Source of the DNA: a virus | Lineage: Duplodnaviria > Caudoviricetes | Length of the DNA: 64,000 bases | IMG/VR virus record: IMGVR_UViG_3300036976_000011 | Coordinates: 1-64,000 of that record | Reading direction: 5' to 3' (one strand) | Part shown: positions 17,254 to 56,184 of the stretch, one piece after another | Numbering within the stretch: position 1 is the first letter of the stretch | Layout: each line of letters starts with the position of its first letter | The notes under the pieces: generated by a model | Told to the model about the DNA's origin: nothing | Databases searched by the model: none | The model's input: the letters and a program-made list of their open reading frames with translations, nothing else | Translations under genes and position numbers: made by a program

Positions 17254-17288
17254 TTCTATCTCCTGTTTGTTTCTCTTTGACTAGAGAT

Positions 17289-17383
17289 AGTTTACCACAA
17301 AATTGCACCTAGCTATAGTGATGAATGTCATATATATCACATGACATTCATCACTGCACAGGCTAGCCCTAGAATGTTATACT
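17289..17383. promoter_or_regulatory. divergent promoter pair with inverted ATGACATTCATCAC operators
   Basis: Perfect 14-bp inverted repeat at 17318-17331 and 17341-17354. Each copy is followed by 6+17 nt and an extended -10 (TGnTATACT rightward, TGnTAAACT leftward). Confidence 0.75.
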
Positions 17384-17400
17384 AAGAATAGGAGGGACTT

Positions 17401-17990: not shown

Positions 17991-18209
17991 ATGAGCACCA
18001 AACAAAAAATACTAGATTTTATTAAGAAAAGCGAAGGCGGCGCGACCTATTCAGATATGCACTCGCTTGGCTTTTGTCGCGCCACTCTACGCCGATGGGT
18101 TATCGAGCTTGAAAATGAGGGGGCAGTAAAAAGAGAACGTGAGCATCCGCGTGCCAGGGCGGTGTTTAGCGTCATAGAACAAGACTGCGATATGACATTT
18201 GTCACATAG
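17991..18209 (+). CDS. winged helix-turn-helix regulator
   Basis: KQKILDFIK...ATYSDM..GFCRATLRRWVIELENEGAV; flanked by operator repeats. Confidence 0.75.
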   Translation: MSTKQKILDFIKKSEGGATYSDMHSLGFCRATLRRWVIELENEGAVKREREHPRARAVFSVIEQDCDMTFVT

Positions 18210-28468: not shown

Positions 28469-29432
28469 TCTTTGCTATCCTTTGGGCAAAGCGCCAGAAC
28501 CCCAAGGCGTTCGCCCATACCGGCTCACTCACGACGCGAGCGTGCCGGAAATGCGCCTTGATCTGGTCGCCCATCAAGAGCGCACCCCCCCCGGTGATAA
28601 GCACGGCGTCAATGCTAGCCGCCCCGTTCCACAACTGCGTTGCTTCAGCTATGACCTGCTCGGCTAGGGGAGCAACGGCCTCATCAACGACAGTCCCTAG
28701 GCTTACCGGTTCACCGTAGTATTTCACCTGGCGCTCCTGAATAACTTTCACGACCTGGTGGTCTCTCAGGTCCAGGTCGGGGCACTCGTCAGTCAAGTGA
28801 GCTTTAATAGCCCTCGCCACGTCCCAAGCCCCCACGCTGACGGATGAGGTTTCCCGACCGATCTCCTCAAGATTATCCACGCTGAGAATGTTGGTCGTCT
28901 TTCCGCCGATATCAATAACGCCAACGCGACCGGTCGCCAAAGCCGTGTCAACGATGCGTCCTGAATCATTGAGCGCCTGAGACAAAAGTACACCAAACGG
29001 CTGCGGAATGACGCGCACATCGCCCACATTGAACATCTGCCGATTGCGCCCATCTCGCTGAACACGGTGGCTCCCAATCAGGCGGTCACGCACGGTGTCT
29101 TTATCGTTGTAGAATGCCACAGGCAGACCGGTGACGATAATTGCCCCAACGGACGACGCTGTCAGTTCCGTAAGTGCCGATAGCACCAAGTGATACCACT
29201 CCAATCCAGCGATCCAGTGCCGGTCCTCTCTGCGCTTCAAGTGTCGGCTTTGTCGAATAGCACCATCACCAACCAGTACGTGGTCTGGTTCTCTCAAAAT
29301 AATGCTCTCGGCCATTCCATTCACCGAAAAACGCGCCTGGTCCGGCGTCCCCACCACGGACGGGAACGACGTGCGCCGGTCGCCCGCGATGGCTTTCACT
29401 GCGCTGTATCCTACGTCTAGGCCGATGTTCAT
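28455..29432 (-). CDS. parM: ParM/StbA actin-like partition ATPase
   Basis: IGLDVGYSAVK, VTGLPV, IPQPFG, VIDIGGKTT, LITGGGA, NALGF. Confidence 0.93.
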   Translation of the reverse strand: MNIGLDVGYSAVKAIAGDRRTSFPSVVGTPDQARFSVNGMAESIILREPDHVLVGDGAIRQSRHLKRREDRHWIAGLEWYHLVLSALTELTASSVGAIIVTGLPVAFYNDKDTVRDRLIGSHRVQRDGRNRQMFNVGDVRVIPQPFGVLLSQALNDSGRIVDTALATGRVGVIDIGGKTTNILSVDNLEEIGRETSSVSVGAWDVARAIKAHLTDECPDLDLRDHQVVKVIQERQVKYYGEPVSLGTVVDEAVAPLAEQVIAEATQLWNGAASIDAVLITGGGALLMGDQIKAHFRHARVVSEPVWANALGFWRFAQRIAKNESG

Positions 29433-30737: not shown

Positions 30738-31293
30738 CTTACAGATTCTCCTAGGTATAGATTAGCTTTTGCGGTCAAGGCTTCTAGCCTCGCCCGCAGG
30801 TTACGGATGTTGTTGTAAATAAGACGCTTTTCTTCTTCAATTTGCGATAGCTCTGCCTCCTTTATGAGCCTAGCCTTTTCGGCCTGGCGCATGTCTAACA
30901 GGGTTGCTTGGTACGCCTCATTTTCAGAAAGGGCGATGGCAACACTGGCCTTGCGCTGCTCTGCGTTCTTACCCTCGCTTTTCATGACGGCCTCAGCCTG
31001 GGCAACCTCTATTACCTCTTTATATCCCAGGACCACATCCTTCAGCCCAATGATTTCGACTTGCAGGGCGTGAATCTTGGCAGGGAAGCCCGCCAGCCGG
31101 TTCTGCGAGTGCATCATGTCAGTTACGATGGCGTCAGCCTCGTCTGTGCTAGGCGCGCCACTCTTTTGCAATTCCACGAGCTTGGCGTCTATCCCCGCTG
31201 CCCATTCCATGTGTTCGCCCCACAGTTGCCCCAGAGCGTCGAGGCGCTGGTGAGGGTTCTTGCCCTGGCCGTTGAGCCATTCTTGTTCATTCA
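30734..31293 (-). CDS. coiled-coil protein
   Basis: MNEQEW...EGKNAEQRKA. Confidence 0.6.
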
Positions 31294-41174: not shown

Positions 41175-41312
41175 GTCAGATTCTCTCCTCAAGCAAATCC
41201 CTAACTGCCTCTTTCGCCTCATCGGCCTCTAATCCAAGCGTCCAGAATAGCACAAAGGCGCGGTCAAGCTGTTCATGCTTCAGATATTTTTGAATCTGGT
41301 CAACTATCTCTA

Positions 41313-41403
41313 CGGTCCACCCTCGCGCCCACGGGGGAACCGAGAGACCGTAGTCTCTGGCGATTACCTGGTCACGGTCCACCCTCGCGCCCACGGGGGA
41401 ACC
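41313..41403 (-). CRISPR. mini-array: two identical 29-nt type I-E-like repeats and one 33-nt spacer
   Basis: GGTTCCCCCGTGGGCGCGAGGGTGGACCG at 41375-41403 and 41313-41341 (period 62); spacer TGACCAGGTAATCGCCAGAGACTACGGTCTCTC. Confidence 0.8.
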
Positions 41404-41600
41404 ACTAGGAATTTCCCGTGTAATGATTTCCCCGCGTGCATAGGGTTTTTAATGTCCAGTGTCCTCTCTGTGGCCCTCCCGTATTTTTCAACGGTACGAC
41501 ATCCACAGTCTTAGACACATTCACATTAAATTTGCAGACAATTGTCTCAGATGATCCGCTCTGACTCCGGCTAGCCGAAGCTGGAAGGCTTGTGCCTGCC
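41404..41600 (-). ncRNA. putative TnpB omegaRNA scaffold, continuous with the mini-array
   Basis: Overlaps the tnpB 3' end (GCCGGAGTCAGAGCGGATC...GGATGTCGTA pattern); contains CACGCGGGAA and CACGGGAA segments complementary to the repeat. Confidence 0.6.
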
Positions 41601-43052
41601 ATTTGCAGATTTAGCATCCCTAAACGCCATCTGTAGGAGCGGACCCGCACCCGACCAGCTTTCTTTCGCGTGGTCCGCGTTTAGGGTATCATTCTCGACA
41701 CATCTTGCTAGAAATGCCGAGTAAAGATCACGTTGAGCCTCTATGCCACATTCGCACTCGTGCCAACGTTGCGACAGAGGTTTTTTCTCTATCGTGCCGC
41801 AGCCGTGGCATATCTGGCTCAGTCTGGTACGATACGTCGAAAACTCCTCGACCCGACCGCCCGCGCCCTCAGTCTTGCGTCGCAACATCTCAACGAACGT
41901 ACCCGGTGCGCGCTTCCCGACCGATCTACCATACTGGCGCTGAAAGGCCCGGTAGGACAACTTTTCGGTCTTGACAACGTTGCCCATCCCAAGCACGCGG
42001 TTGGCAAGCCGGCCGTGCAGGCTCTTGCGGTACTCGGCCTGCCGGCGCTGCAACTCGGCCAGTTTCGCTTCCGTCTTGAGCATACGTTTGGACTTGTTGC
42101 GTGGTCTCTTGTCCTTGATGGCGCGCCCCTTTTCGTCGTAGCAGTCGGGGTTATTGGCACGCCGTTGTCGGTCCAACTTGCGCTGCAAAATCCGTATCTC
42201 GTGCTCGATGTCCTCAAGCTCTGCGCAGAATTGGACCAGAAAGGCGTCGTCCTCGCCTACTACTGCGACGGTGGACGGCCCAATGTCTAGGCCGACGACA
42301 GCGCCGTCAACTGTGGGATGTCGTTGTAGGGGATGGCCCTCTAGCACCAACTGGGCGTAGAACCGGTTGCGCCCGCTGATGACCTTGAGGATGATGCGCA
42401 CGTATTTGACCCGACAACCGAGGCCGTGGGCGTGGGTTGGGTCGTCCCGGTCCACGACGGCGGGTATTTCCAGGTCGCGCCACTGAACGTAATTGCCCTT
42501 GTCCCGCCAGCGCAAGCCCTGCAAGTTGGTGATGTTCTCCACGCTGCGCACCTGGCCGTACCGTTTGAATCTTGGCTTGCCGCAAAGGTCGCAGCGCCGG
42601 GTCTCTTTGGGTTTCTTGCACCTTCGACCATTCTTGCACGGCCTGTCGGTCCCAAACCGGTAACGGTTGACGCTCGTCCAAACACGAGCCGTAACAGCCT
42701 TGACCTCTTGGCTGCCCAGGTGGTCACGAATCCAGGAGTGTGTAAACTGTGTCGCCCAACTCATCAAATCGTATTTGCGTATGCCCACGGCTGCATCCGC
42801 TTGACGAAAGGCTTCTACCCGCGCCTTGTATTGTGCTTTTTGAGTAACCGTGGCGTCTTTCCCGTTTCTGCCCCTGGGCATCTTGCAGGCACGTCGGAAA
42901 GCCTTGGACTCGCGCAACAACTTCAACCGCTTCAGGCCCTCGCCCAATACGGCGTTGTGAACCTGGCGGGCGGTCTCAAAGCGCACCAGGAGTTTTTTTT
43001 CCTGACACGGCGTTGTCTTTAATGGCAATTCTAAAATAAATGTCTTGCTCAT
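41571..43052 (-). CDS. tnpB: TnpB RNA-guided nuclease (IS200/IS605 family), no tnpA
   Basis: RuvC-I VGLDIG, RuvC-II KTEKLS, CHGC..CECG zinc finger, RuvC-III QRDLYSA. All three catalytic acidic residues are present. Confidence 0.93.
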   Translation of the reverse strand: MSKTFILELPLKTTPCQEKKLLVRFETARQVHNAVLGEGLKRLKLLRESKAFRRACKMPRGRNGKDATVTQKAQYKARVEAFRQADAAVGIRKYDLMSWATQFTHSWIRDHLGSQEVKAVTARVWTSVNRYRFGTDRPCKNGRRCKKPKETRRCDLCGKPRFKRYGQVRSVENITNLQGLRWRDKGNYVQWRDLEIPAVVDRDDPTHAHGLGCRVKYVRIILKVISGRNRFYAQLVLEGHPLQRHPTVDGAVVGLDIGPSTVAVVGEDDAFLVQFCAELEDIEHEIRILQRKLDRQRRANNPDCYDEKGRAIKDKRPRNKSKRMLKTEAKLAELQRRQAEYRKSLHGRLANRVLGMGNVVKTEKLSYRAFQRQYGRSVGKRAPGTFVEMLRRKTEGAGGRVEEFSTYRTRLSQICHGCGTIEKKPLSQRWHECECGIEAQRDLYSAFLARCVENDTLNADHAKESWSGAGPLLQMAFRDAKSANGRHKPSSFG

Positions 43053-43059
43053 TCTCTGG

Positions 43060-43219
43060 CCTAACAAAAAACCAACCCCGTCGGTGCTTGTTCCTGTCAC
43101 AGAGTCAAGCCGGGGTTGGCTAGCATCGCCAGTCTGGCGCTATGCCTAAAAAACAAAAAGCTCCGACCTGACTAACTCTGTGACGATTCTATCGTATCAT
43201 GGTTCAAGCATAGTGTCAA
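43060..43219 (-). promoter_or_regulatory. tnpB promoter and structured 5' leader
   Basis: TTGACA-17-TACGAT (43191-43219); GTCACAGAGT/ACTCTGTGAC stem, GCATAGCGCCAG/CTGGCGATGC hairpin, CCAACCCCG/CGGGGTTGG pairing. Confidence 0.7.
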
Positions 43220-43309
43220 GCGGATCACCCTTCCCGCTTCAATCGTTTGGTGCGCAGTGCCCCTATCATACTCCCACTACGGCGATATGCAAGCCGCACA
43301 GCGTCAAAG

Positions 43310-43624
43310 CTATGCTAATTCCCACCTGCCCCGCTCTGGATTGACAACATGCCCCTTCTTTTTCGCCAGTGACAGGGCTGACCGCGTGTGCGGCAGTGAT
43401 ATCCCCATGTGCGCCGCTATTCCCGCTGGCGTATGTCGTCCGTCACGGATAGCGGTAAGAATGGCTTCGCGGCGCATGGGCTTGCGCCCGTCTTTGGTGC
43501 TAGGGCAGCGCCCGACGAGAGGATACCAGCGGTATGAAGTATCACGATTGCGCTCCCTGCGCTGCATGACGGCGCAAAAGACACAACGGCGATACACGCC
43601 TTCCAGTCTCCACTTATGGGCCAT
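43310..43624 (-). CDS. zinc-finger plus winged-helix protein
   Basis: CVFC..; ILTAIRDG..TPAGIA.HMGIS...RSALS.A.KKGHV. Confidence 0.6.
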   Translation of the reverse strand: MAHKWRLEGVYRRCVFCAVMQRRERNRDTSYRWYPLVGRCPSTKDGRKPMRREAILTAIRDGRHTPAGIAAHMGISLPHTRSALSLAKKKGHVVNPERGRWELA

Positions 43625-43970: not shown

Positions 43971-44500
43971 TCTATAATATCACAGAACACAGATAAAATC
44001 AAGCGTTTTCAGGAATTTCTAACCTTTGTGGAGCTTTTCGTTTCACGCGCCGTTTGCAAGCGCGCCTGTGTCGCTCAAAATTGGCCCTAGCCAGTCCGCG
44101 TATTTTCACCGTCCCGAATGCGCCGGCGTGCCCAGGGACGCCCCAATACCAGGCAGGGAACCTTTTCTTGCAATGGGGGCAAACATAGTGATTGCTCATA
44201 ATAATAAACTTGGGCGTGCAATGCCTTGCGCGCCTCTGCACAAAAGCACGGGGCAAAGCACGCCCGGCGAGTTTGGGAGACTCGCTTTTACAGCTAATCC
44301 ATCGCCCGCCACAACATGGCGAACATCAACACGACGACGATAACCGATGCAAACTCTATCATTTTCAGCTACTTGATTTTTTCGCGGCAGTCGTCACAGT
44401 ATCCCCAGTTGCCACAGCTCGGGCAAATCGGGCGACCGCACGCGCCGCACGTTTGGTTGGTTTCATTTCCGCATTGGCATTTCACCGTTTTTTCTCCTTT

Positions 44501-44731
44501 TTAAAACATCCTTAGTTGTGCATCCTCTTTCACCAGAACATCTACAACGTCCCACTCGTCAAATCGCCGCCGCGCCCACTCCTCAAGCGCCAGCAGGGCG
44601 CTGTTCTGCGTACCGTGGTCGTGGACCCGGACGTGTAGCCGGTCGTGTATCCTGACACAACCGTGCCAGCCGCTCGCGTCCTGGTAGAGCGCGGGACGGC
44701 CTGAGTTGCGGCAGATTGTACAGGCGAGCAT
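44501..44731 (-). CDS. hypothetical protein
   Basis: GGGAG RBS. Confidence 0.55.
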   Translation of the reverse strand: MLACTICRNSGRPALYQDASGWHGCVRIHDRLHVRVHDHGTQNSALLALEEWARRRFDEWDVVDVLVKEDAQLRMF

Positions 44732-44733
44732 TG

Positions 44734-44976
44734 TTATTCTCCCAGGCCCATCGCCGCTTGCGCGACCTGCTCAAGCTCTAGTGGTACCACTTCAATATTT
44801 TCAAATTCAATATTGACCGCTGCATACTTTACCCCTTCTGGCATACCTGGATTATAGTCACTGTACCACTCGCCACACTCCCAGTATTGGGCGTATTGTC
44901 TGACCGCTTCTACGATGGCCCATTTACTAGGGCGCGTAGGCGCTTCAAGCACGAATTCAACTTTTATTTTGACCAT
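44734..44976 (-). CDS. hypothetical protein
   Basis: Coupled ORF. Confidence 0.55.
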   Translation of the reverse strand: MVKIKVEFVLEAPTRPSKWAIVEAVRQYAQYWECGEWYSDYNPGMPEGVKYAAVNIEFENIEVVPLELEQVAQAAMGLGE

Positions 44977-52470: not shown

Positions 52471-52913
52471 GTGTTTCGTTTGAATAGTAGCCCTTCCCGG
52501 CGGCACTTGGCCTGCACGGCCCTTGGTGTCCTGTCCAGTTTTTTAGCCATCGCGGAGCATGTCATCGTCTTGTAAAATTTGTGCAGAAACTCAACCTGGT
52601 CTTTCTGCCAATACATCGAGCCAACGCCAACGCCAAGCCTCTGCGCCCGCTGATTTACTGCTATTGCAGACCGCCCTAGTTCCTCTGCAAGTTCACTCGC
52701 TGGCAAATGTTTATTTGCTAGCAACCTAGCGTCATCTTCGTCTGTCCATCGCTTGAGCTTACGCAGCCCAAGTTGCCTGCGCTTTTGTTTTATGGCTTCG
52801 GCAGTGCGGTTGAGTCGCTTGCCTATCTGTTCATCAGTACAATGACGCCAGTACCATTTTAGGTATCGGGTTTCAAGGGAGGTCCAGGATTTGTTCGTTT
52901 TCATGTGTAGCAC
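52467..52913 (-). CDS. triple Myb/SANT-like repeat DNA-binding protein
   Basis: Three WTxxE/D...L...IG/LA..LxRT..AI..K/R...LG repeats. Confidence 0.75.
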   Translation of the reverse strand: MLHMKTNKSWTSLETRYLKWYWRHCTDEQIGKRLNRTAEAIKQKRRQLGLRKLKRWTDEDDARLLANKHLPASELAEELGRSAIAVNQRAQRLGVGVGSMYWQKDQVEFLHKFYKTMTCSAMAKKLDRTPRAVQAKCRREGLLFKRNT

Positions 52914-53638
52914 CGCACTTCTGGAAATTCAGCGGCAAAGCGGTTGAAACCTTCTAAATTCTCACACTTGCTTCGAGCTAGACCGCCGTAATCTGCCATC
53001 ATTCTTGTGACCCTGGCAGTAGTACGTACTTGCAAGCCTTGCTCCTTGTATAGATTCAAAAGCGGCAGGTTGTGCTCTGAAATATACGCCGCCAGGTCCA
53101 GGAGCTCCCACTCCATGATTGGACAACACCGGTATTTACTATCAACATATTTAAAAATAGTTGGATGGGGCTGTCCTTTCCAGCGGCTTGACAATGTTCG
53201 TTCTCTGTCCGCGCTTTCACCTTTAGATAGCCCCCAGTACCAACCGTCCCAATATTCACGCTTTGTCATAGTTTGTAAGTCCCATTGCCCCTTATCTCTA
53301 CTCTCTTGCCATGATTCAGAATTTGTAATATTAAGCGTCTGTACAATGGTTAATTCAATCGGCCATTGAGCCAAGAACGTCTCTATGACTTCCTGAAAAT
53401 TGTGTATCCACCATGATTCCTCTGAGGCAAGAAAGTACATTGGTATTTGTGGAGCAATTTGGTATATCATGTGTGCTAGGCAAACAGATTGTTTGCCAAA
53501 GGAGACTGAGACATACGCTCTTGGAGCTAGCCTGAGCATTTCCTCAATACCAGACAGAGCAAAATCTAATCTGTATCGCCTCTGCCGCAATCGAGCATAA
53601 AGCCTTGCTTCAGCCATTTGCCTTTCAAATATCTTCAT
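52901..53638 (-). CDS. cysH: CysH/PAPS-reductase-like protein of type IV-B CRISPR-Cas
   Basis: YVSVSFGKQS (PP-loop variant), WGLSKGESADR, CCPIMEW...DLAAYI..HNLP.L.LY. Confidence 0.85.
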   Translation of the reverse strand: MKIFERQMAEARLYARLRQRRYRLDFALSGIEEMLRLAPRAYVSVSFGKQSVCLAHMIYQIAPQIPMYFLASEESWWIHNFQEVIETFLAQWPIELTIVQTLNITNSESWQESRDKGQWDLQTMTKREYWDGWYWGLSKGESADRERTLSSRWKGQPHPTIFKYVDSKYRCCPIMEWELLDLAAYISEHNLPLLNLYKEQGLQVRTTARVTRMMADYGGLARSKCENLEGFNRFAAEFPEVRCYT

Positions 53639-54041
53639 TGCGTCGCCACTCCCACAAAGCTATTGCCAAAGCTGCCTCTACCGTTAGCCCAGAAACACAG
53701 CCGATCATAGGTATTTGCACTTTCTGCGCAGCGCGTAGCGACCTTGGCAATCCATTTGATTCACCACCAAGCACTATCGTCGTCACCTCGGACCAATCCG
53801 TTGATTCTATTGAGTGCTCGTAATAGGTTTCAAGAGCCAATAGGCCATACGGCAACGGCCAATCAGATAGCGTCTCCAGATCAACTCTATCCTTTGCCTT
53901 GAAAAGATTTCCGGCCAAGAGGGCGCTTCCGCAGTCCAATAACAAAAGCCGAGACACACCAAATGCTTCTGCGGTACGGTAGGCTCTATTCAGGTTCCGA
54001 TTTACTTGATAAAGTAGAACGTCCACCAAATACCTCGTCAT
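53625..54041 (-). CDS. minimal SPOUT (SpoU/TrmL-like) RNA 2'-O-methyltransferase
   Basis: NRNL.RAYRTAEAFG, IVLGGESNGLP, VQIPMIG...GLTVEAALAIALWE. Confidence 0.8.
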   Translation of the reverse strand: MTRYLVDVLLYQVNRNLNRAYRTAEAFGVSRLLLLDCGSALLAGNLFKAKDRVDLETLSDWPLPYGLLALETYYEHSIESTDWSEVTTIVLGGESNGLPRSLRAAQKVQIPMIGCVSGLTVEAALAIALWEWRRNEDI

Positions 54042-54525
54042 TCATAGCACGCCACGGGTGCTTCTTTCCCCTTGGCCTTTGCGCCATTTCTTTGGCCCAT
54101 CTGCGTCGCTGTTCCCACCATTTTGGCGAGCGATTATAAATCACGCCGCGCAAGTTATCAGGCGTGTATCTATACACAGTAAACTCAGATACACCAAGCT
54201 TGCTGGCAACTTCACAGCACCGCTTCCTTTGAACCAAGCGCATGTCAATAATTGCCTCGGTTGCATTCTGATAACCCAGCATCATCGCTTTCCTATCGGT
54301 CTCAGTTACGCTACTTCTGTTATCGTGCTTGTGAGCACTTTTGTCTATAGGCAATCCAAATAACTTTCTCCAATTGAAAAGCGCCCGTGTAGACACACCA
54401 AGCACGCCTGCTATCGTGCCCCACGAGCACCCCTGCTCGCGCATTCCGGCGATTACATCTTTGACCGGTTCTTCAAATTCACTCTCTATTCTATTCCACA
54501 ATTTTTGTCTCGTGGCAATGCTCAT
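53986..54525 (-). CDS. double HTH protein
   Basis: SWGTIAGVLGVSTRALFNWRK and CEVASKLGVSEFTVYRY. Confidence 0.7.
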   Translation of the reverse strand: MSIATRQKLWNRIESEFEEPVKDVIAGMREQGCSWGTIAGVLGVSTRALFNWRKLFGLPIDKSAHKHDNRSSVTETDRKAMMLGYQNATEAIIDMRLVQRKRCCEVASKLGVSEFTVYRYTPDNLRGVIYNRSPKWWEQRRRWAKEMAQRPRGKKHPWRAMNDEVFGGRSTLSSKSEPE

Positions 54526-55262
54526 CCTGGAACCGCCAAGCGTCTTTGGTGCTCAGGCCGGTAATAAGATGGTCTAAGACCATAATGCGCAATGTTGAAT
54601 GGCTTGAACTCGCCGTGTTGCTGGATGAGTTCAAGCGCGTCCTCTTTTGGCACACCACGCGTCAACTCACCATTACGCCAGAGCGACCAATTTTCCTGCC
54701 AACTTTCAACTGTCCAGAACACGCGCCCCCACCCCTGACTTGCTTTCTTTCCTATATGCGTCATGGTGCTAAGAAGCGCCTCAATTTCGCCTCTATCACC
54801 AATGCAATACCAATGCACGCGCTCGGCTACCCGCGCAAAGACCGGCATGTGATAAGCCCGATATTTGCCTTGTTCAACGATAACCTTCCCGCGTCGCGTG
54901 CCAAAGTCTACCAGGTCTGCGTACTGCGTGTCAAATCGCTTATTCCAGTGACTTGTGTCCTCTGCGATCCACCACGGCTGAGGCTGTGCCCACGAACACG
55001 CAAAATACCAGTCAGGTGTACCATGGTTGATGATTTTGAGCGGCATGTGAATCCCGCGCAGGTTCGTCCTGACACCGCCCGGCAGCGTGGCCTGCTGTGG
55101 ACCGTGTGCTAGCCTATGCGCCTGATACCACAAGAGACCGTCTAGTGGCAACCACTGGTCACATATTGGATTCGTGCGGAATCGCGCCGTGACACGCAAT
55201 GGCTCGTAAGCTTTACCGTAAGGCATTGAGTAGCTCCCGGATATTGTCAGCATGGCTCTCAA
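54522..55262 (-). CDS. csf3: Csf3 (Cas5-like RAMP), type IV
   Basis: PLRVTA, LPLDGLL, YFACSW, G.YRAYHMP, WYCIGD..EIE.LL....HIGKK.SQGWGRV, RP.Y. Confidence 0.88.
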   Translation of the reverse strand: MRAMLTISGSYSMPYGKAYEPLRVTARFRTNPICDQWLPLDGLLWYQAHRLAHGPQQATLPGGVRTNLRGIHMPLKIINHGTPDWYFACSWAQPQPWWIAEDTSHWNKRFDTQYADLVDFGTRRGKVIVEQGKYRAYHMPVFARVAERVHWYCIGDRGEIEALLSTMTHIGKKASQGWGRVFWTVESWQENWSLWRNGELTRGVPKEDALELIQQHGEFKPFNIAHYGLRPSYYRPEHQRRLAVPG

Positions 55263-56184
55263 GATGGCTCATGTAGCGATTGCCAAGCGGCAAGTCAACG
55301 TCTTTTCCCGTTGGCGCGATACGTGGATTTATCTCTATCCACTTGTCGAAGCTGATAGAGACTTTGCCATGCCCTGTGCCGGACTTGCCACCGATGTACG
55401 GCCTGCGCCCAAACTCTGCCAGCGTCACAGCGAATGCTTCAAATTCTACGTCTGTCACATCATCAAGCGCAATTTCCCAAAAGAAACGTGTGCCTGCCGC
55501 CAGCGTCTCGACCTGGTATCTCATTTGCTGCTTTTGGCCCGTTTTTTTTACCACATCCTGGTCTGTACCGGTTTTGGCGCGCTCATCTGCCGCCTTGGCC
55601 TCAAGCAAGCCACGTACCTCTGGCGCTATCAACTGACGTAGCTTTTCGTCTTTCTCATCGTCCTTGCGCGTGAACGCTTCGCGCTGGCACAAATCCCACA
55701 CCGAGACGAGCTCGCCGTCTGTGAAACGATCCGGCAGAATCCATGCAGTTTCTTCGCAAATCGGGATGACCTTACCGAATTTAGCCTTCCCAGGCAACAT
55801 CTGATTCCCACACGCCGCGCCAAAGAGCGCCAGAAGTGGGATAGCCTCGCGCCACTGCCGCGCCTTGTCAATATCAAGACCGCGGGAACCACCTTTTTCC
55901 AACGCGCCACCAGAAAAGAGCATGTAATACGCTGCCAGGCTCAAACCATGCACCTCTCCGTTTTCGTTCACGCCATAGCCAAGCTGACGTAGCATGTGGT
56001 ACATTCCAATGTCGCGGAAAAGTCCCCGCATCGAGTTGCCGCTAATAATTGGCACGATCTCTACCGTACCGTTACCTTGCGCTACCTTTTCGCGTCGCAG
56101 CATTGAGTTGATACCGTGTGTCTCTCCGATGTGCGAGATGCTGGTTAGCGCCGTAACGACGCCCTCAAAAATGTACGTGTGCAT
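55213..56184 (-). CDS. csf2: Csf2 (Cas7-like backbone), type IV
   Basis: LTSISH, VPIISGNSMRG..R, LFSGG.L, PL.ALFG, L.GK, IGGKSGTGHG. Confidence 0.92.
   Translation of the reverse strand: MHTYIFEGVVTALTSISHIGETHGINSMLRREKVAQGNGTVEIVPIISGNSMRGLFRDIGMYHMLRQLGYGVNENGEVHGLSLAAYYMLFSGGALEKGGSRGLDIDKARQWREAIPLLALFGAACGNQMLPGKAKFGKVIPICEETAWILPDRFTDGELVSVWDLCQREAFTRKDDEKDEKLRQLIAPEVRGLLEAKAADERAKTGTDQDVVKKTGQKQQMRYQVETLAAGTRFFWEIALDDVTDVEFEAFAVTLAEFGRRPYIGGKSGTGHGKVSISFDKWIEINPRIAPTGKDVDLPLGNRYMSHLESHADNIRELLNALR

Follow-up and report, generated by a model that had tools for sequence, protein, structure and literature searches.

A phage-borne TnpB cassette with a two-repeat mini-array and a candidate flank-derived guide that nearly matches the phage's own early promoter region

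The TnpB cassette and its guide-RNA region

The DNA analysed here (the window) comprises the first 64 kb (64,000 nucleotides) of a phage genome that is complete at 90,407 bp and bears terminal repeats. Between about 43302 and 41313, on the minus strand, lies what we interpret as a domesticated IS605-type TnpB cassette, which would combine promoters of its own with a leader, tnpB and an omegaRNA-like scaffold, and end in a nascent CRISPR-like array of two repeats. From left end to right end, the features of this region are:

43303..43309, minus: CTTTGAC, candidate left junction, 0-6 nt past the stop of the upstream 104-aa gene
43191..43292, minus: cassette promoters TTGCAT-16-TATGAT and TTGACA-17-TACGAT, the first with homologues in the L006 and L008 cassette promoters
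41571..43052, minus: tnpB (493 aa, protein P0004), with profile matches and an intact RuvC triad D256/E363/D442
41404..41640, minus: conserved omegaRNA-like guide-RNA scaffold, overlapping the tnpB 3' end, with blocks shared by relatives; strongly structured (fold z-score -4.5)
41375..41403, minus: repeat 1, 29 nt, type I-E format, homologous to the terminal hairpin of canonical omegaRNAs
41342..41374, minus: spacer 1, 33 nt, with no in-register self match and no protospacer found
41313..41341, minus: repeat 2, 29 nt, identical to repeat 1
41297..41312, minus: trailer, putative native guide, 16 nt, with its register taken from the right-end boundary of relatives

P0004 matches the Cas12f1-like TNB domain (PF07282) above cut-off and the RNA-guided TnpB family model (NF040570) slightly below cut-off (91.8 bits, E 5e-26), and has more than 4,000 homologues, many of them annotated as transposases. 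It is 52-56% identical to TnpBs encoded directly behind a Y1 transposase in bacterial genomes; P0093, which falls within this range, lies directly behind a PF01797 gene, and the tnpB genes of L034 and L035 likewise follow a Y1 transposase. The phage itself has no Y1 transposase (TnpA). The RuvC residues D256, E363 and D442 are invariant in two alignments. Since this D-E-D triad is intact, P0004 is probably an active nuclease and not a TldR, which sets it apart from the nuclease-dead TnpBs that the first-pass annotation had cited as able to repress transcription. A second assembly with an identical TnpB (L117) is the same base for base and hence offers no variation.

The leader (43053-43120), which is conserved upstream of tnpB in L006 and L008, consists of a long CCCC...GGGG stem followed by a T run and, placed directly before the tnpB start, resembles a terminator or attenuator. 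Residues ~140-165 of P0004 (window 42560-42640) form a four-cysteine insertion, C-x5-C ... C-x2-C, which is present in the array-bearing phage TnpBs P0004, P0012 and P0047 and missing from P0005, from G001 and from all canonical relatives. A wetland metatranscriptome contains identical contigs of low depth, possibly DNA carry-over, on 42203-43431 and 44315-44781; these are confined to tnpB and upstream DNA, with none over the array.

The scaffold continues for ~170 nt after the tnpB stop codon and is kept in relatives down to 58% protein identity. Canonical relatives end in a single hairpin, after which the flank begins, and twelve copies of one IS place this right-end boundary at ...GTGGTCAG, followed by variable flank. 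The 3' ends of the repeats in the window (...GTGGACCG) and in G001 (...GTGGTCCG) both align with this canonical terminus. On the strength of this alignment, the repeat is a duplicated terminal hairpin of the omegaRNA, with the guide beginning at the next base. As the window repeat ends in ...GTGGACCG, the guide is predicted to start at the T of TAGAG; the flank thus begins right after the last G of the repeat. The boundary in relatives therefore sets the same register as the one in which the trailer had earlier been proposed to occupy the guide position of a TnpB. A reading of the trailer as the conserved end of a protein was rejected, the 45-aa frame found there having no homologue.

The effector gene and the adjacent repeat-spacer array share one orientation, and the locus is of the TranC/Cas12r-like kind, a TnpB effector with a two-repeat mini-array in type I-E format. 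In phage-borne relatives the scaffold recurs and leads into 29-nt repeats with spacers of 32-33 nt, each array-bearing relative having one to three different spacers. L008/L009 have three repeats, and G001, a complete 83-kb phage (L030 record), has three good repeats and one degenerate one. The last repeat is degenerate in both G001 and L008, and the terminal repeat is intact in the window phage. Several metagenome contigs end exactly at the first repeat. The cassette of L004 is 84% identical to that of the window and sits among unrelated neighbouring proteins, which excludes conserved synteny and indicates that the module moves between phages. Directly upstream of its intact tnpB, L004 also carries a second tnpB 3' end remnant with scaffold (760-1020), the remains of a tandem cassette.

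No protospacer for spacer 1 was found in IMG/VR, cultured phages or plasmids. A 13/16 match to it after TTGAT (genome 69713-69733, beyond the window) was set aside as probable chance, being off register by one base and lying inside a 382-aa gene in which the differences are non-synonymous. The 3' half of spacer 1 (window 41342-41357) forms a hairpin of 6 bp and a 4-nt loop, directly adjoining repeat 2. The 7-mer TGACCAG occurs directly after repeat 1 (41368-41374) and again 10 nt after repeat 2 (41296-41302), and the first two spacers of G001 both begin with TGATCTG; both 7-mers are similar to the 7 nt with which the repeats end. Elsewhere in the window, at 52901-56184 on the minus strand, lies a type IV-B-like operon without an array of its own, encoding Csf2-like (E 4e-20), Csf3-like (E 1e-11) and PAPS-reductase-like proteins.

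A near-cognate site in the divergent promoter region

Positions 17254-17400 divide a leftward from a rightward gene set and form a divergent promoter/operator region, in which the following features were recognized; the promoter calls follow the sigma-70 consensus only, and the promoter rules of the host may differ.

17277..17281, plus: TAM-like TTGAC, immediately before the matched site; nine canonical IS605 relatives have NTGAC as their left-end flank
17282..17297, plus: site matched 15/16 by the trailer guide, its near-cognate target; 17293 is T against G in the guide
17289..17297, minus: leftward TG-extended -10, TGgTAAACT (hexamer 17294->17289), with the position-12 mismatch at the second base of the hexamer
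17291..17319, plus: rightward promoter-like TTTACC-17-TATAGT, with its -35-like hexamer inside the target
17318..17354, no strand assigned: inverted pair of the 14-bp operator ATGACATTCATCAC

The trailer, which comprises the 16 nt directly 3' of the last repeat (41312->41297 on the minus strand), has the sequence TAGAGATAGTTGACCA; its counterpart at 17282-17297 on the plus strand is TAGAGATAGTTTACCA. The two are identical at 15 of 16 positions: positions 1-11 are all paired, and the sole mismatch is at position 12, where the genome has T (17293) and the guide has G. The register is the same at both sites, in that the target starts right after TTGAC (17277-17281). Re-reading of the sequence thus agrees with the first-pass annotation, which had reported a 15/16 match after TTGAC, on both the coordinates and the position of the mismatch.

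That annotation had also placed the match beyond chance, and several independent scans agree. Shuffles of the window predict 0.01 matches at two mismatches or fewer. Across the whole 90,407-bp genome, the second-best 16-mer matches to the trailer have four mismatches. When the search is anchored on candidate TAMs, the trailer guide finds one mismatch at 17277 and at least seven at all others of the 646 TTGAY sites; the same holds for the 1,062 TGAC sites, with one mismatch at the target and at least seven elsewhere. The analytic expectation for a TGAC-anchored 16-mer with no more than one mismatch is 1062 x 49 / 4^16, or ~1e-5. With so low an expectation for a TAM-anchored match, the match is real, and chance is ruled out for practical purposes. 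Coincidence, which would have in its favor that a single pair of sites is involved, standing apart from any comparative support, is hardly credible beside this figure and the seven mismatches of the second-best TGAC site. TTGAC itself is common in the phage genome (383 copies). The similarity is sharply bounded, with no significant similarity past the 16-mer on the right flank of the two sites, no extended homology on the left flank, and none outside 23 bp.

The TAM was derived from the left-end junctions of relatives, independently of the trailer match. In canonical relatives, inter-element homology sets in at an NTGAC that is conserved and precedes the left-end hairpin by 17-20 nt. Of nine canonical IS605 relatives, five (L010, L034, L035, L200 and L242) have TTGAC at this junction, two (L199 and L201) have CTGAC and two (L204 and L207) have ATGAC. 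The TAM is not uniform in the clade, since a more distant branch (42% identity, 13 copies) has TTAC at the junction. TGAC-type and TTAC-type proteins differ at 12 alignment columns; P0004 has the TGAC state in seven of them and the TTAC state in one, and these include N-terminal columns, where TAM reading is expected. Hence the TAM of P0004, as judged from relatives at 38-56% identity, is probably NTGAC. This is in line with the TTGAC/TTGAY predicted at the outset.

On the minus strand, the matched site corresponds to TGgTAAACT and the first transcribed bases, with the TAM just downstream. The earlier assignment of the site to the -10 (17289-94) and start of a leftward promoter is thus borne out by the TGgTAAACT read there. 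The layout of this promoter (operator, -35, 17 nt, TG -10) is common to two other promoters, and the 14-bp operator has two further copies at 18192 and 18215. A G at position 12 would change the leftward -10 from TAAACT to TCAACT, such that a perfectly matching target would be a worse promoter. The notion that the region constitutes a lysis-lysogeny switch is not supported, as no evidence of a repressor or integrase was found.

Origin of the match and its possible consequences

The left end of the cassette offers an origin for the match. The stop of the upstream 104-aa gene lies at 43310, and the conserved promoter TTGCAT-16-TATGAT spans 43292->43265; because these two bracket them, the left boundary must fall within the 17 nt in between, which begin with CTTTGAC. 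When CTTTGAC is joined to the trailer, the resulting 23-mer is identical at 22 of 23 positions to 17275-17297, and these are the only two copies of the 23-bp motif. Such a 23-mer is the signature expected of an IS605-type insertion after a TAM, which would make the trailer the native flank guide of the element. We therefore read the trailer as probably the element's own guide for homing or exclusion, and the promoter as a paralogous, near-cognate site. An origin of the match as a by-product of a native flank guide may be simpler than one by selection. With only two copies of the motif, the paralogous reading leans on the same match for which it is meant to account. No recognizable left-end hairpin is present at the proposed left junction. 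A candidate left-end relic at 43108-43104 was rejected as a leader hairpin common to L006 and L008 without a conserved TTGAC. IMG/VR holds no relative of either the target or the empty allele by pattern search: TTGAC plus the 16-mer went unmatched there, whether position 12 was G or T.

Our best explanation, to which we would tentatively assign a probability of roughly 0.42, is that a domesticated cassette retains a native flank guide for which the early promoter is a near-cognate site, bound and poorly cut. The RNA of the last repeat and the next 16-18 nt would serve as this flank-derived guide, with the insertion site of the element in its cassette-free form (CTTTGAC and then the trailer) as the perfect target. 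Homing, retention, or exclusion of relatives without the cassette would follow, as is usual for TnpBs. Positions 17275-17297 would then represent the second copy of the 23-bp motif, inside the divergent early promoter/operator region. With a TAM, an 11-nt perfect seed and four more pairs, the TnpB-guide complex would be expected to bind the promoter site, and the mismatch at position 12 would be expected to weaken or block cutting; the bound complex would cover the leftward -10 and start as well as the rightward -35. Production and loading of the trailer RNA, continued reading of NTGAC by P0004 and binding of the complex are steps that we infer, as would be any effect on transcription. Binding without efficient cutting at the promoter site is likewise plausible, and regulation of the early promoters by the trailer guide is a real possibility. 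Some TnpBs tolerate TAM-distal mismatches, and position 12 may not protect the site from cutting.

It is tempting to go further and to regard the arrangement as a selected RNA-guided switch, in which TnpB and the trailer guide, upon expression of the cassette, repress the early divergent promoters and the mismatch is kept for the sake of binding without cutting. The match is bounded exactly by a TAM and a TnpB-length guide, its target lies on a -10 and start site, the terminal repeat is intact, and there are precedents in active effectors that bind uncut and in regulatory crRNA-like RNAs. Selection of this kind is nonetheless doubtful: a by-product origin accounts for the match without it, the metatranscriptome contigs touch tnpB and not the guide, and comparative searches yielded no relatives in which co-variation could be seen. 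Indeed, no close relative of the phage was found in IMG/VR or the other collections searched for guide/target co-variation. Relatives reached through the 680-aa protein next to the target are only ~50% identical, too distant for non-coding comparison, and metagenome relatives reached through the DUF5131 gene 3' of the array are at best 54-63% identical, none with the scaffold or the 16-mer. Nor is the arrangement seen in G001, the one related phage with a complete genome, which has no TAM-anchored self match; such a match is thus no general trait of the family. In G001 the last full spacer does match the phage's own upstream region at 28 of 33 positions (sites 30922-30954 and 28954-28986). As a precedent for TAM-anchored self-regulation it was rejected, the flank being GAAAA, which is no TAM. 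The matched site in G001 is just after a left-end-like hairpin and has a strong promoter, a 44-aa ribbon-helix-helix-like gene and tnpB downstream of it.

Conversely, TnpB and promoter might not interact at all, the match being a relic of the landing site, if P0004 has ceased to read NTGAC or the trailer RNA is not loaded. We consider this unlikely, given that the N-terminal, TAM-side residues of P0004 group with TGAC-type relatives, that Cas12r can form its guide from one repeat and that repeat 2 is a perfect copy. Pointing the other way, array-bearing relatives may have shifted PAMs, as Cas12r has to ARG, RNAs beyond the last repeat are usually held to be non-functional, and the left end of the cassette has decayed. 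The first-pass annotation had offered a further role as a weapon, the guide cutting the perfectly matching promoter of competing phages with the phage's own copy spared by the mismatch. The intact nuclease triad would permit this, virus mini-arrays directed against siblings and mismatched to self are a known theme, and the 28/33 self match of the last G001 spacer could be viewed in the same light. Such a role is very unlikely, because a G at position 12 makes the -10 TCAACT, leaving the perfect target a poor promoter, and no G allele with TTGAC was found in IMG/VR. It is more improbable still that the array serves another effector, be it a host type I-E Cascade or the phage's type IV-B-like complex, with the trailer irrelevant. 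The type I-E format (29-nt repeats and a 33-nt spacer), the Csf2-like, Csf3-like and PAPS-reductase-like genes at 52.9-56.2 kb and the known hijacking of host Cas proteins by phage crRNA-like RNAs are what such a reading would draw upon. It is opposed by the fusion of the array to a TnpB scaffold in several unrelated phage contexts, by the homology of the repeat to the omegaRNA terminal hairpin, and by a target flank of GAC and not of the AAG type. Taken together, the guide position, TAM, register and promoter location that were originally proposed are supported; P0004 is not a TldR, nothing points to a lysis-lysogeny switch, and the perfect-promoter idea is weak.

If the favored reading of a native flank guide with a near-cognate promoter site holds, the locus captures a very early stage on the path from TnpB to CRISPR, with one spacer acquired and the native flank guide kept. 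A nuclease-competent TnpB, loaded with the last-repeat guide and one base short of a full match, might even sit uncut on the early promoters as a developmental timer, a speculation that we hold to be possible and rather unlikely. If true, this would be the first virus to time its own transcription with a transposon-derived guide RNA. Alternatively, it would be a natural example of a selfish flank guide that creates a near-cognate self-target for its carrier to tolerate or exploit. The RNA-guided repressors of the TnpB/Cas12 family known to us either lack nuclease activity (TldR, dCas12f) or have cas, toxin or host genes as their targets; a phage TnpB that is active and has a TAM-flanked site with one mismatch in its own early promoter would be new. 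With the TAM (NTGAC) and guide register predictable from relatives, the proposal is directly testable.

Comparison with known systems

Among the closest known systems are the IS200/IS605 TnpBs of ISDra2 type (TAM TTGAT), which share with P0004 a RuvC nuclease and TNB domain. In both, the scaffold overlaps the 3' end of the gene, and the guide is, or here is predicted to be, the DNA at the right end; the five-base 5' TAM is of the TTGAY type in these elements and likewise in the relatives of P0004. Their guide matches the empty insertion site, as the trailer would match the reconstructed cassette-free site. Unlike these elements, the window phage has neither TnpA nor a recognizable left-end hairpin. 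Duplication of the terminal hairpin has given a CRISPR-like array, the cassette carries promoters of its own, and an extra TAM-flanked near-match lies in the promoter region of the carrier.

The Cas12r-CRISPR of the Thermus Lalka phages and the transposon-CRISPR intermediates TranC (LaTranC, PDB 9jfo) are, as here, phage-borne TnpB-derived effectors, and they share with the window 29-nt I-E-like repeats, 32-33-nt spacers and the lack of adaptation genes. P0004 belongs to a different TnpB branch, and its sequence match to LaTranC is weak (E about 0.01). The Cas12r crRNA comprises 26 nt of repeat and 18 nt of spacer; RNA of the last repeat and 18 nt downstream has been observed, one repeat is enough, and Cas12r has evolved an ARG PAM (bioRxiv 10.64898/2026.04.20.719267). 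Against this, the window locus has a ~170-nt scaffold between gene and array, where Cas12r has 15 bp and no tracrRNA; its TAM is probably NTGAC in place of ARG, and it has one spacer.

TldRs (bioRxiv 10.1101/2023.11.30.569447) are TnpB-family proteins, often phage-encoded, with a ~16-nt guide to a TAM-flanked promoter, and thus resemble the situation described here. They repress by blocking RNA polymerase, as the window TnpB would. Of the TldR-type features, a guide complementary to a TAM-flanked promoter site is present and RuvC loss is absent; the triad is intact, the target is the phage's own promoter and not a host gene, and the guide has one mismatch. In CreR/CreA and viral Cracr (bioRxiv 10.1101/2023.03.10.532045; 10.1101/2024.10.29.618823; 10.1101/2023.03.03.530964), an incompletely complementary guide turns an active nuclease into a repressor. 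The likeness lies in partial complementarity to a PAM-flanked promoter, here 15/16 after TTGAC on the -10/start. Those RNAs work with effectors of type I, II or V-A, and the promoters on which they act belong to cas or toxin genes; the window combines a TnpB effector, a phage early promoter and a longer complementarity (15/16). Finally, when its guide is only 10 nt long, a TnpB with an active nuclease binds its target and leaves it uncut, and editing drops sharply with single mismatches (PMC13507860).
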